Positions 13,954 through 19,312 of a stretch of 64,000 bases of DNA are shown piece after piece. The position numbers and the translations under genes are program-made. The notes beneath the pieces are model-generated. The model searched no databases and had not been told where the DNA came from. It saw only the letters and a program-made list of their open reading frames with translations. Positions within the stretch are counted from its first letter, which is position 1; every line of letters begins with the position of its first letter. The stretch spans positions 1 through 64,000 of the forward strand of contig CAWEQH010000009.1 in assembly GCA_963811165.1 (NCBI GenBank), in the 5' to 3' direction. The DNA comes from an uncultured Nitrospiraceae bacterium. Lineage in GTDB: Bacteria; Nitrospirota; Thermodesulfovibrionia; Thermodesulfovibrionales; UBA6898.

Positions 13954-14037
13954 ACCTGCATATTCTTCATCCGAGACTTTTCATTCCATGACAGCCCTCG
14001 CTTGCAATAATAGACCGGACCTTTTCGAGGTGATCAC

Positions 14038-14664
14038 ATGACTGATGAGAAGAGAAATAGAGAGGAATATGTAATGGTAGTTCCTGCGGCAGATCTGTGG
14101 CGTGCGGGGTACTTTGAAGGCTTATGCTTCGATTTGCCAAAGTATTTAACGATAATAGAAGGGCAGCAGCATATTGAGTTCAAACCGCGGGAGGAGATGG
14201 AGATTAATCCGGATTACAAGCAGATAATTCCGTATGTGATTCTTTCCCATAAGGGGACCATCTTTTCCTATCGTCGCGGCAAATTAATGGGAGAAACGCG
14301 ACTGCTGGGTAATTATTCAATAGGTGTCGGCTGGCATATTTCCGCATCTGACAGGAATTTGTTTGACCACACATACAAGGAAGCTATGCGCCGCGAACTC
14401 AATGAAGAGGTGGAAATAGCATCGCCTTATAAAGAGTATGCTGCTGCACTCATCAATGATGACAGTAACGAAGTGGGGCGCGTCCATTTTGGTATGGTGC
14501 ATATTTTGTGTTTGGATAAGCCCATCGTAAAACCCAGAGAGAAATCGATGAATGAACCGGCCTTCGTTGACCAAACAGCCTTATTAAAAGATATTGATAA
14601 ATATGAAAATTGGTCGCAAATCTGTATTCGAAATATAGAACGGATACTGGATCTTACAAAATAG
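14038..14664 (+). CDS. NUDIX-like phosphoesterase (COG4112 type)
   Basis: E.NPDYKQIIPY, E.RL...SIGVGxHI, RELNEEV, INDDSNEVGRVHFG, ENWSQI. Confidence 0.85.
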   Translation: MTDEKRNREEYVMVVPAADLWRAGYFEGLCFDLPKYLTIIEGQQHIEFKPREEMEINPDYKQIIPYVILSHKGTIFSYRRGKLMGETRLLGNYSIGVGWHISASDRNLFDHTYKEAMRRELNEEVEIASPYKEYAAALINDDSNEVGRVHFGMVHILCLDKPIVKPREKSMNEPAFVDQTALLKDIDKYENWSQICIRNIERILDLTK

Positions 14665-14999
14665 CATAGCGCCGTATGCGATGGTTGTGGCGCCAAGATT
14701 TGGGGAGTCCTTTTTCACCCGATCTTGACAGCTCACATCGAAACGGAGCCGCCGTCAACTCCCTGAACCGGAAAAGTGACCGTCTCATCTCCGACCCTCT
14801 ATCGAAAATGGTTCATGGCTGTCCATTCTCATTGTAGCAGAGTAAGTGGCTATGACCTCCTGAGCTTAGTAAGACCTTAGACCCGTAGGAACCCTTTGTT
14901 CGGAGTCCGTGAAAATGAACTACCCCGCAGCAGAGCTGCGAGGTATCTATTGTTGTCATTCCGGCTGATATGTATTAAACCTGTCAAGTGGGCTAATTT

Positions 15000-15337
15000 C
15001 TCTTTAGGTATTTTTTATTTCTTTCAGTGTTAAAGCCGTGGACTCTGGTCAGGGCACAAGAACTTAGACGACGGTAGATCATTCTGATATACGCGGGTTG
15101 GGTACCGCATGACTTGTCTTCGTCGTGGAGCTGCCTCTGTCTTGTATCGAGGGTCATCCATTTTGCAGGAGCCTCAAGCCGGAAACGAGGATTCTCCATA
15201 CCTGTTCTTCGAACCCTGGCCGAAATACACGGCGCATTATAATAAATCTGTTGTCTGTAGGGGCGGAGAAACACTGCTCCAGTTTCGAAGCCCCGGAAGA
15301 CAATTTCCTTTGTTCTTTCTTTCGTCATCAGTTCCTT
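15000..15337 (-). ncRNA. Putative bridge/seek RNA of the IS110 element (boundaries approximate)
   Basis: Structured non-coding end downstream of the transposase; contains a 10-nt target match (15175-84) and an 8-nt donor-junction match (15083-90). Confidence 0.7.
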
Positions 15338-16468
15338 TTATCCGTTCATCACAACACTGATATTGCCTTTTCCCATAACTTCATGTGCAATGGCCCAGAT
15401 AAAGCCGACCAATTCCCGAGCCACGGCTATACAGCTTTTAACGGGTAGCTTCCCTTTGTTGATCAAATACCAGTACCGGCTGCACAGTCTCTTCTGGGCC
15501 TTCCATGCGATCTCCTGTACAGCTTTGCTGGTCTTCTCAGCCTTTCGCCTCAAGTGAGCAGTTTTGCGCGCTGGCAAGCGATAGCACCAGGAAGCTTCTA
15601 CCATCACTCGTCTTACGTGGCTGTTGCCGGTCTTTGTAATCCCGCCCCTCTTCTGCCGTTCTCCACTTGAATGTTCCGATGGCACCAGTCCCAAGTGTGC
15701 CATTAGCTGCCTGGGAGATTCAAACCTGGTGATATCTCCAAGTTCTGCTACTATCGTAATCGCAGCTACCAGATCCATTCCGCGCAAGGCCATCAATCCT
15801 TCAACTACAGGCTTGAGTATCCAATCTTCCAAGGCCTTTCTTATTTCTTCCTCCATTGATGCTGTCCGCTCCTGTGTATGCTTAACCATATCTATATATT
15901 CCTGCAATACAATCTGCTGGGCTGCCGTTTCAAACCGGAGAGTCTCAAGCCACCTAAAATAGGTCTTCGTCCATTTGCTCTTGCCAGGATAGATTTTCCC
16001 ATGTCTCAATAAAAACCCTCCCAGCCGTTGCCGACTATGCCGTTCCATTCCTTTCATGTCCTCCCGCGCCCGGGTCAGATCCCTCATCGCTTCCTGTTCT
16101 TTATCAGGCACCCAGATTGATGTTAGTTCTCCAGCTCTCAGCAGCCTTGCAAGACTCACTGCGTCCCTCCGGTCCGTCTTCACCCTGTCTCCAGCTTTCT
16201 TCGGTATCAGTGACGGAGCTATCACCACACAGTCATACCCAGCCTTCGTCAGTTGCCGATAAATTTCATATCCGCATGGCCCGGCCTCGTAACAGAACAA
16301 TACCTGATCTCCAACTTTACTTAATTTCTTCGCCAGCTTCAGGCAGGCATAGGGTGTATTCTCTATCGTGCCGTAATAACCTGCCTCTCCTCTGTCGCCC
16401 TTCGCTATGCCTACCGAAATCTCTGCCTTGTGTACATCCAGCCCTGCAAATTTGCTATAATTCTTCAT
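15338..16468 (-). CDS. IS110-family DEDD transposase/recombinase
   Basis: GLDVHK, YEAGP, KTDRRDA (RuvC-like DEDD) and GLVPSEHSSG...GITKTGN (catalytic Ser domain). Confidence 0.97.
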   Translation of the reverse strand: MKNYSKFAGLDVHKAEISVGIAKGDRGEAGYYGTIENTPYACLKLAKKLSKVGDQVLFCYEAGPCGYEIYRQLTKAGYDCVVIAPSLIPKKAGDRVKTDRRDAVSLARLLRAGELTSIWVPDKEQEAMRDLTRAREDMKGMERHSRQRLGGFLLRHGKIYPGKSKWTKTYFRWLETLRFETAAQQIVLQEYIDMVKHTQERTASMEEEIRKALEDWILKPVVEGLMALRGMDLVAAITIVAELGDITRFESPRQLMAHLGLVPSEHSSGERQKRGGITKTGNSHVRRVMVEASWCYRLPARKTAHLRRKAEKTSKAVQEIAWKAQKRLCSRYWYLINKGKLPVKSCIAVARELVGFIWAIAHEVMGKGNISVVMNG

Positions 16469-17023
16469 GACCTGTCCTCCTTAATGTGGCTCTGAGCCTT
16501 TGGTTTTTCTACCTTTAGCTTAACCCACGTCCTTAAGGATGGACAGGTTTTATACATTATGTCTTGTCCGACAACCCCTCCCAGCCTCCCCTTGTCAGGG
16601 GAGGGAAATTATTCTCGTCCCCCTGATAAGGGGGATAGAGGGGGTTGAAGGATTCCCGGCGCGCTTTGCTTGCGGGAATGACAAACAATAACCCCGATGC
16701 AGAGCATCGAGGAATTCTTTTGATTAAAAATATTTCATCTCCGGCAGAACAGTCCTTCGTTAGTAACAGTGAGTTCTGTAGGATAGAAGCTGACTTTACA
16801 ATTAGATTTAGTCTGACAGATTTTCTTTTTTTTTCTGATATAAGGAATCTATAGAATTGCCGTCACTGGAAAGGAGGTGCTGTTTTCTCCGGTGCTTGGC
16901 GATCTCAATCGCAACGGGAGGTCGCCCAAAGAATACCCTGGCTCCTCGAAGGACAGAAACTCAAGCTTTCGAGGGTGAATTTTAGTGAAGCGGTCTGGTT
17001 CTTATCTGTAGGAGGTATTTGAA

Positions 17024-18301
17024 ATGAAAGATATACTTTTCAAGGGCAGTATGATTGCCGGAACCATCGGTCGTTACATTATGGCCAAAGCAGTCGCATT
17101 TATGTTCGTGGCCATTTATCTGGCGCTTGCTGTCGGCGTGGCGACCGCCACTTCCCTTACAGTGGGGAAGATGTATGTAGTAAATGCTACCTTTAACACG
17201 GTCATCGAGGCGAACCTGGACGGCACGGGAGGAGTGAGCCTCGGCAACCTCAACGGTCTGACTATCGGCGGCGTATCCGATATAGCGTTGGACAAACTCC
17301 ACGGCAAGATGTATGTAACGCCGTATTTCAACTTGGTCCAGGCGAATCTGAACGGCACGGGAGCAGTAGACTTCGGCGATCTCAACGGCCTTTATAAGGG
17401 AGGAAACGGGATAGCGCTGGACATAGCTGACGGCAAGATGTATATAGTCACCAATAATACCGTGGTCCAGGCGAATCTGGACGGCACGGGAGCAGTGAGC
17501 CTCGGCAACCTCAACGGCACGCTTAATGATCCGGCCAAGATAGCGTTGGACCTCGCTGGCGGGAAGATGTATGTAGTAAATGCCGGCAATAACACAGTGA
17601 GTCAGTCGAATCTGGACGGTACGGGAGGAGTAAACCTCGGCACCCTCAACGACACACTCGACGGGCCGATTGGGATAGCCTTGGACACCGCTCACGGGAA
17701 GATGTATGTAACCAATAGTTTCAATAACACAGTGAGTCAGGCAAATCTGGACGGCACGGGAGGGGTAAACCTCGGCACCCTCAACGACACGCTCGGCTGG
17801 CCGTTCGCGATAGCCCTGGACCCGCTTGGCGGTAAGATGTATGTAGTGAATTCCACTGCTGACACGGTGAGCCAGGCAAATCTGGATGGCACAGGAGGAG
17901 TAAGTCTTGGCAACCTCAACGGCACGCTCAACGGCGCAAACGGGCCATCTGCTATAGCACTTAATTTTGAGACTCTGCCACCTTCGGTTTTGAATAATCT
18001 CTCTTTGTACGTGCAGATACTGTTCGGGGTCGGGAATGACGGCGGCGGCATAGGCATCCTGCCGGGCGGGGGGATAATACACATTCCGCCCAGCGGCCCT
18101 CCGGACCCGATCTTCCTGACGCTTCGTAATAACATGCCGCAGGTGCTCCGGGCGGTGGAGCTTTACGAAAACGGCCTGGCTGTTCCCGGCACTGCAACGA
18201 GCAGCACGATGCAAAGAGAAAAAAGAGAGGCTTTGCTTATGGCGATAGATGCGCTATTGAAGATGCAGGTGTCATTGGGAAAAGCGCTTATCGGCAGATA
18301 A
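17024..18301 (+). CDS. Exported YWTD/LDL-receptor-class-B-like beta-propeller repeat protein
   Basis: AGGAGG RBS, hydrophobic N-terminus, six repeats of GKMYV.N..NTV.QANLDGTGGVSLGNLNG.L..P..IALD. Confidence 0.85.
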   Translation: MKDILFKGSMIAGTIGRYIMAKAVAFMFVAIYLALAVGVATATSLTVGKMYVVNATFNTVIEANLDGTGGVSLGNLNGLTIGGVSDIALDKLHGKMYVTPYFNLVQANLNGTGAVDFGDLNGLYKGGNGIALDIADGKMYIVTNNTVVQANLDGTGAVSLGNLNGTLNDPAKIALDLAGGKMYVVNAGNNTVSQSNLDGTGGVNLGTLNDTLDGPIGIALDTAHGKMYVTNSFNNTVSQANLDGTGGVNLGTLNDTLGWPFAIALDPLGGKMYVVNSTADTVSQANLDGTGGVSLGNLNGTLNGANGPSAIALNFETLPPSVLNNLSLYVQILFGVGNDGGGIGILPGGGIIHIPPSGPPDPIFLTLRNNMPQVLRAVELYENGLAVPGTATSSTMQREKREALLMAIDALLKMQVSLGKALIGR

Positions 18302-18379: not shown

Positions 18380-18804
18380 TAGGCACAAAAAATACAAGAG
18401 GAGCTTTGCGCGCGGCAAGAGATGCCATGAAGAACATGTAGCAGACGTTGCAGAAAATTCATTAGTGCCTACTTTGCGGAGGTTTTGAAACATGGGACGC
18501 GGCAAAAATGGCCGCGTCCCTTTGTCGTCGGCGATCGTGGGCTTAATCTCACATCTTCACTTGTGCTGAATGGACAATGGTGTCTTTTCCCAACTCGTGT
18601 TTTGATTCCCTTCCCTCGTTTGCAATAACAGAACAAGCTGCCTTTTTCTGACAGAAGGTCGGAACAAATAAAAGTGAGAAGCGCGGAAGAGAGATGAAAT
18701 TGACTGTTACTTCATGAATCAGATATGCATACATATGATTGCAATATGCTATGCAGATGGCTATAATACAAACAGAGATTAAAACAAGATTCGGAGGTGC
18801 TGAA

Positions 18805-19023
18805 ATGGCCACAGCCGTAAGAATATCAGAAAAATTAGTCAATGAGGCGAAGAAATTTAGCCGCGTCGACCATCGCTCTATAACGGGTCAAATAGAGCAC
18901 TGGGCGCAAATCGGCAAATGCGCTGAAGAGAATCCTGATTTAACGTATAGTCTTATCAAAGAAATGCTTATGGGCCTGGAAGAACTGGAACAAGGCCAGA
19001 GATCAGAATACAAGTTCGGCTGA
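18805..19023 (+). CDS. ParD-like type II antitoxin
   Basis: MATAVRISEKLVNEAK....HRSITGQIEHWAQIGKCAEENPDL; GGAGG RBS. Confidence 0.9.
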   Translation: MATAVRISEKLVNEAKKFSRVDHRSITGQIEHWAQIGKCAEENPDLTYSLIKEMLMGLEELEQGQRSEYKFG

Positions 19024-19030
19024 TTACCGG

Positions 19031-19312
19031 ATGAAGATCTATCAATCGAGGACATTTGAAAACAAGATAAAAAAGTTTTCGCTGCAAGAAAAGGAAATAT
19101 TGGATGAGGAAATCAAAAAGATAGCGAAGAACCCTCTGGCCGGAGAAGAAAAAAAAGGTGACCTGAAATGTGTTTACGTGTACAAGTTCAAAATCAAGTC
19201 AATTCAGTATCTCCTTTCGTATAGAATGATTAAAGCCGGCCTGGAGTTAATCATGATCGGCCCGCACGAAAATTATTATCGTGACCTCAAAGGCTATTTA
19301 AAACGGAGATGA
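19031..19312 (+). CDS. RelE/ParE-family type II toxin
   Basis: NPLAGEEKKGDL..VYVYKFK...YLLSY...IGPHENYYRDLK; directly downstream of the antitoxin. Confidence 0.9.
   Translation: MKIYQSRTFENKIKKFSLQEKEILDEEIKKIAKNPLAGEEKKGDLKCVYVYKFKIKSIQYLLSYRMIKAGLELIMIGPHENYYRDLKGYLKRR

Follow-up and report, generated by a model that had tools for sequence, protein, structure and literature searches.

The mechanism by which bridge or seek RNAs guide recombinases of the IS110 family was described in 2024. For the IS1111-type seekRNA elements ISEc11, ISPa11 and ISKpn4, the account of Siddiquee et al. 2024 (PMC11187229) includes sub-terminal inverted repeats, 7/3 terminal extensions, a downstream non-coding region, and an RNA in which the complement of the target top strand lies ahead of the match to the bottom strand. 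IS1111 inverted repeats span 7–17 bp according to PMC11208160, in which a branched donor loop is also described for many IS1111 elements. IS621 and ISCro4/IS622 (PMC11208160, PMC11208158) are described with a recombinase of DEDD and serine sites, a CT core on the plus strand, and a long first guide followed by a short second guide and then a handshake-like base that matches the donor. ISCARN28 is one of the six elements whose bridge RNAs are drawn in Durrant et al. 2024 (PMC11208160). Targeting of palindromic repeats has been reported for ISPa11 (PMC11187229), IS621 (PMC13626964) and ISPpu9, natural reprogramming is stated in PMC11187229, and a screen of 72 orthologs is reported in 10.1101/2025.05.14.653916. 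Because the mechanism, palindromic-repeat targeting and natural reprogramming are all published, the main claim made here is not a surprising one. Bridge recombinases are under development as genome-editing tools, and an ortholog with a well-mapped predicted RNA and dozens of naturally reprogrammed relatives allows design rules to be read directly.

We analyzed a 64,000-nucleotide stretch of DNA, here called the window, from an uncultured Nitrospiraceae bacterium. It contains an insertion sequence of 1,596 bp on the minus strand (14967..16562), bounded on each side by a core dinucleotide that reads CT on the plus strand and AG in the transposase sense (14965..14966 at the right-end junction, 16563..16564 at the left-end junction); with one core copy counted in, the element ends are 14967–16564. 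We conclude, with a probability of roughly 93%, that this is an IS110-family element of IS1111-type layout inserted at the CT core of a palindromic repeat that occurs in multiple copies, and that its downstream end encodes a predicted bridge/seek RNA likely to guide the recombinase to that site. Underlying this conclusion are the ends, the cores, the open reading frame, the empty targets, another copy placed identically in the repeat, and covariation both of guides with targets and within stems, all of which are observed. The sub-terminal inverted repeats are 16 nt long and 94% complementary, with one mismatch. At the right end the repeat (14970..14985) follows a 3-nt terminal extension (14967–14969), and at the left end (16542..16557) it is followed by a 7-nt extension (16558–16564) that includes the core. 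The non-coding stretches of the element amount to 371 nt downstream of the gene as against 94 nt upstream. A sequence-only reading of this DNA had proposed an IS110/IS1111 element at 14967..16562, of a type known for sub-terminal inverted repeats and a downstream non-coding region, and each of these could be located. The stop codon is separated from the predicted RNA by an extra hairpin (15251..15303, minus strand) that is present in close relatives too. A 111-aa open reading frame at 14993–15328 has no Pfam match and was rejected as spurious.

The recombinase gene (15338..16468, minus strand) is an open frame of 376 aa, which is longer than the 330–350 aa given as typical of IS1111 transposases in PMC11187229, and its ATG is preceded by a Shine-Dalgarno-like AAGGAGG (16476..16482, minus strand). 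The protein matches PF01548 at 61.5 bits and PF02371 (Transposase_20) at 76.4 bits, and it scores 262 bits against NCBIfam NF033542, for which the cut-off is 140. From motif positions and alignment to IS621, with residue roles taken after PMC11208158, we infer that D11, E61, D99, D102 and S268 are counterparts of the catalytic residues, the serine lying in an SG motif. Similarity to IS621 and ISCro4 is remote (E 1e-7 and 1e-3, respectively), and the protein is only about 25% identical to IS5075/IS4321, so that its membership of the IS1111 clade is tentative, the layout agreeing with the rules of PMC11187229. Two other IS110-family genes in the genome (G000:C4:420125-421105 and G000:C10:228448-229401) are unrelated, and neither was matched by the RNA model described below.

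Within IS110-IS1111 the element belongs to the ISCARN28 / ISSfr2 / ISEc45 branch. An ISSfr2-family transposase is 53% identical to the window protein over 97%, and the region downstream of that transposase gene scores 86.7 bits against our RNA model. In the conserved stretch at the C terminus, the ISCARN28 protein shares 46 of 74 residues, compared with 59 of 74 for the representative row that bears the ISCARN28 label in Durrant's table (both counted by eye), the real ISCARN28 protein being the more distant of the two. The collections searched contained no named element closer than ISSfr2 or ISCARN28. Nitrospiraceae and Thermodesulfovibrionales assemblies are the source of the nearest named relatives, which makes a host of that phylum probable, and the search for relatives in viral contigs gave none. 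The window element differs from the named members of the branch in its target and in the +1 guide register of its clade. The earlier suggestion that the class is known and the ortholog may be new therefore needs a qualification: the class is published and the ortholog is a new member, but its branch already has named elements. In comparison with ISEc11, ISPa11 and ISKpn4 the layout features listed above are all shared, and a possible difference from those three is a donor loop with two guides in the window element. The DEDD and serine sites, the CT core on the plus strand, and the succession of long guide, short guide and handshake-like base are common to this element and to IS621 and ISCro4/IS622, from which it differs in its long inverted repeats, its branched donor loop, and the placement of the RNA downstream rather than upstream of the gene.

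The element interrupts a palindromic host repeat. The left half of the repeat lies at 14953..14964 on the plus strand, with GTCATTCCGG at 14955–14964, and the right part occupies 16565..16684 on the same strand. Inside the right part is a nested hairpin repeat with arms at 16588–16601 and 16620–16633, and the partner arm of the palindrome lies at 16672–16684. The 16-nt empty target named in the sequence-only reading has 8 exact occurrences in the genome, and the wider target word GTCATTCC[CG]G has 82 occurrences compared with approximately 14 expected. We found one other copy of the element (G000:C10:186611-188202), with a DNA identity of 84% and a protein identity of 89%. It has the same repeat position and orientation as the window element, as predicted by the idea that other copies would sit in target sites. 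The insertion position and orientation around the core are thus fixed in both genome copies, and they are also fixed in close relatives. The proposal that the element is aimed at a host repeat is supported by the second copy and by the empty sites. No RAYT/Y1 transposase (PF01797), a candidate mobiliser of the repeat, was found in the 95%-complete genome. When 150 of 633 genome candidates were scored with the RNA model, only the two element copies matched and no stand-alone RNA copies were found. Among contigs from two DNA runs, none spanned the element and none contained an end-to-end joint, a result that carries no weight for or against. The insertion site itself is a mosaic of three repeat types, with a hairpin repeat on each side (14910–14946 and 16679–16715) and another nested in the target palindrome (region 16573–16645); the flanks match other places in the genome.

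The predicted RNA (15033..15233, minus strand) is closed by a long helix in which 15204–15233 pairs with 15033–15063. This helix was missed by the alignment and found by duplex energies: the mean for 84 distinct pairs was −44.6 kcal/mol with the element's own partner, −25.4 across elements, and −19.0 for shuffled sequences. A consensus fold of 66 sequences places both target strands in an internal loop between the outer stem and an inner hairpin (15148..15175, minus strand; helix 2, two-sided changes in 7 of 8 pairs); the loop that contains the donor strands is branched. The target guides thus occupy unpaired columns, in agreement with the expectation that they should fall in loops. Two-sided changes were present in 13 of the 23 stem pairs, a number reached in none of 500 shuffles. 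The fold pairs 96% of cells compared with 30–50% for slid controls, over which it is favoured because the consensus was derived from the same sequences. The single-sequence fold of the window RNA is unremarkable (z = −1.05), and in it the two target guides are partly paired to one another. A search of Rfam over 14000–18000 gave no real family, the one match having an E value of 0.94. In nine loci (L114–L119, L121, L123 and L124) the inner hairpin of the target loop is longer by an insertion of about 27 bases with no change in the target, and the arm therefore tolerates extension. In L031 and L071 another insertion sequence lies within the RNA region or stands in its place.

Three matches had been noted on the minus strand of the non-coding end, and all are present: TTCCGGCTTG at 15175–15184, a 10-nt match to the target; ACAAG at 15141–15145, described as complementary to the right half and corresponding to the second target guide; and ATATCAGA at 15083–15090, an 8-nt match to the predicted circle junction. 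When the non-coding end was shuffled 2,000 times, target matches of at least 10 nt appeared in 8 of the shuffles and donor matches of at least 8 nt in 178, so that the donor match is not significant by itself. The last base of the 10-nt match does not belong to the guide, because conservation of G15175 reaches at least 90% across 66 homologs irrespective of target, which marks this base as scaffold. The description of an intact programmable recombinase appears sound as judged from the sequence, with a programmable stretch shorter than the 10 nt that had been quoted. The first target-loop strand (15176..15185, minus strand) is the complement of the core and right target, and lies ahead of the second (15138..15147, minus strand), which matches the bottom strand and consists of the ACAAG guide (15145–15141) followed by a handshake-like AC (15140–15139).

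Single matches of this kind are suggestive at best, and the case therefore rests on homologs. We assembled 162 loci, made up of 80 from genomes, the best 80 of 284 from metagenomes, and the two copies of this genome. Guides could be parsed in 106 of these, giving 67 distinct guide sets, and the other 56 were unparsable. With the target written in the transposase sense (left flank, AG, right flank), we set aside the left flanks of L022 and L032–L035, which have no true junction, and of L094, which has an end-to-end junction, as well as the right flanks of L008 and L009, which contain an internal duplication. The L170 protein is identical to that of L004 and the two are not independent. For 42 distinct guides in the standard register, the first guide matched the right flank at 4.56 of 6 positions compared with a permutation mean of 1.76, and none of 20,000 permutations was as high; the signal is confined to positions 1–5, with none at position 6. 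For 30 guides the second matched the left flank at 3.12 of 5 positions compared with 1.66 when permuted, again with 0 of 20,000 as high and with the signal at −3 to −1. The wrong-flank control for the second guide was null (1.13 compared with 1.16 permuted). Since the homologs are related, these permutation counts overstate independence. From 28 later-fetched loci we parsed 19 distinct guide-flank pairs, of which the 16 in standard register had a mean of 4.4 of 5 matches in register and 1.9 when displaced by one base. The anticipated covariation of guides with targets in homologs thus holds for both guides, and the later loci agree.

Among the parsed loci, the first guide strand does not appear to hold the core at one fixed position. 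This strand is 10 nt long in all 106. In most loci the right flank begins opposite strand base 6, giving an arrangement of 6 bases, core and 2. In 30 of the 106 loci (12 of 67 guide sets), the window element included, the register is displaced by +1, so that the flank begins opposite base 7. The 7 + core + 1 strand of the window resembles the 9-nt guide and single linker base described for IS621. Loci of the +1 type have 6 of 6 matches at +1 compared with 2–4 of 6 at 0, with one L096 flank having 4 at +1, and compensatory changes at +1 hold in L092–L094, L109, L110, L133 and L123. Permutation within the +1 group gave a score as high in 1,646 of 20,000 trials, a comparison underpowered with no more than 4 distinct guides. 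Around the window element the +1 loci make up one clade (SH-aLRT 95–97), the type recurs in L133 and L172, and well-supported branches force at least two changes of register, both trees being quick searches. Every clean +1 locus whose right flank is known sits in the palindromic repeat family targeted by the window element. L171 can be fitted to a register only if one extra target base is allowed, and the 11-nt first strands of the distant relatives L040, L052 and L055 are possible intermediates between registers. We consider it an even chance that the core position is truly not fixed, being 7 + core + 1 in the window clade and at least one separate lineage as against 6 + core + 2 elsewhere. 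If so, natural retargeting would proceed by register slips as well as by substitutions, and programming rules would not be transferable between close orthologs. A confirmed slip would also point to flexible seating of the core in the target loop, and would warn against fixed-offset guide design and fixed-column covariation analysis. The part of the bridge and seek RNA literature covered here contained no statement of such a slip; a survey of guide lengths in 32,190 RNAs (10.64898/2026.10.21.760802) may cover the ISCARN28/ISSfr2/ISEc45 branch.

We also examined the donor loop. Its second strand (15082..15091, minus strand) matches the right end and core (ATATCAG) and changes together with the right end in a few distant lineages, namely L038 and, on visual inspection, L056 and the loci from alphaproteobacteria. 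In the first strand (15109..15118, minus strand), GTC at 15113–15111 complements the core G and the first two bases of the left end; this fourth guide of about 3 nt is nearly invariant and so far weakly supported. In the second target strand, the handshake-like base just behind AG is identical to the base that opens the left end in 48 of 50 distinct sets, two of which are T/T cases; the tally retains six exception rows, four of them apparently mis-parsed. By analogy, this base would fit the handshake pairing described in PMC11208158. Among the tallied homologs, no tracking of the target by the base after the donor guide, as in the donor-loop handshake of IS621, was found.

Work on IS621 and ISEc11 suggests how such an element would move. 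The element would circularise, and its joined ends would form a TTGACA-18-CATAAT promoter that transcribes both gene and RNA, the latter being processed from the transcript. The predicted circle-junction promoter would consist of an outward-facing −35 hexamer, TTGACA (14982..14987, minus strand), and a −10-like CATAAT (16556..16561, minus strand), 18 nt apart after the predicted joining of the ends in the clade of the window element. Similar hexamers, judged by consensus match only, are present in most of 29 distinct junctions, and a linear promoter search over 14900–16750 gave none. The target loop would open the target, with one strand pairing with the core and about 6 bases of the right target and the other matching about 3 bases of the left target and the core. 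The donor loop would hold the circle junction, and the DEDD and serine sites would exchange strands at the 2-nt core without true duplication. Whether excision occurs by cut-out or by single-strand copy-out is debated in PMC13626964 and 10.64898/2026.08.31.748434.

Other interpretations have to be weighed against RNA-guided insertion. The matches could be due to chance or be remnants of target DNA, with the protein alone picking the site, given that the words are short, that the donor match is within chance, and that the single-sequence fold is weak. This explanation is contradicted by the position-specific covariation of 42 first and 30 second guides, by the null result with the wrong flank, and by the agreement of the later-fetched loci, and we judge it extremely improbable. 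A different question is whether RNA pairing is the only check. The protein may read the hairpin shape of the repeat too, so that RNA pairing would share the task of target choice; a precedent is ISPpu10, for which 10.64898/2026.03.19.712850 reports a stem-loop determinant. The 11-nt guide word has 11 matching sites in the genome, and both copies of the element are in the repeat although 3 of the 11 sites lie outside it; the restriction of clean +1 loci to this repeat family points the same way. However, with 8 of the 11 sites in the repeat anyway, two insertions reveal no preference, and standard-register relatives use many unrelated flanks, so that a second check of this kind seems to us rather unlikely.

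It is also doubtful, in our estimation, that this copy, though of the kind proposed, has lost the ability to move and survives as an inactive relic. Its frame is open with all five inferred catalytic residues, its RNA scaffold matches the full length of the model at 176 bits (a model that includes the window sequence), and relatives at 91–94% identity carry the same guide. What speaks for a relic is that the 95%-complete genome contains this version only once, beside a single copy at 84%, with no identical second copy found although 8 exact empty sites are available and unused, and that there is one mismatch in the inverted repeats and one at the first base of the guide strand, where the C10 copy matches its target.

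Several loci differ in their junctions. In the 80 loci for which both ends were parsed, the cores were AG/AG in 70, AG at the left with AA at the right in 10 (two of these being duplication artefacts), and the reverse in 0. The AG-left/AA-right loci are L040, L042, L052, L054, L055, L070, L100 and L135, and most of their guides have TT at the core. The asymmetry fits inheritance from one exchanged strand, a crossover between the core bases, or selection at the left end. In L008 and L009 the last 75 or so bases of the right end are present as a tandem duplicate whose join lies at the right-end core and an internal site, which looks like recombination of the right end with the element's own non-coding region. 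The duplication is absent from L007 and L010, which share a genome with these two. In L094 a right-end-like stretch precedes the left end, giving an end-to-end junction such as is expected in a circle, and the upstream end looks diverged or is part of another element. Several relatives, namely L007, L010, L012, L032–L035, L146 and L163, insert beside the word GAG(G/C/T)CTGTC, which recurs in some loci as the inverted-repeat end of an element and thus suggests targeting of another mobile element's ends.

Genes near the element include one for a 425-aa protein (17024–18301) with internal repeats of about 43 residues and a weak SGL match below the cut-off, which is probably a beta-propeller. Two short adjacent open reading frames at 18739–19312 may form a type II toxin-antitoxin pair, resembling ParD-like and RelE/ParE-like proteins.
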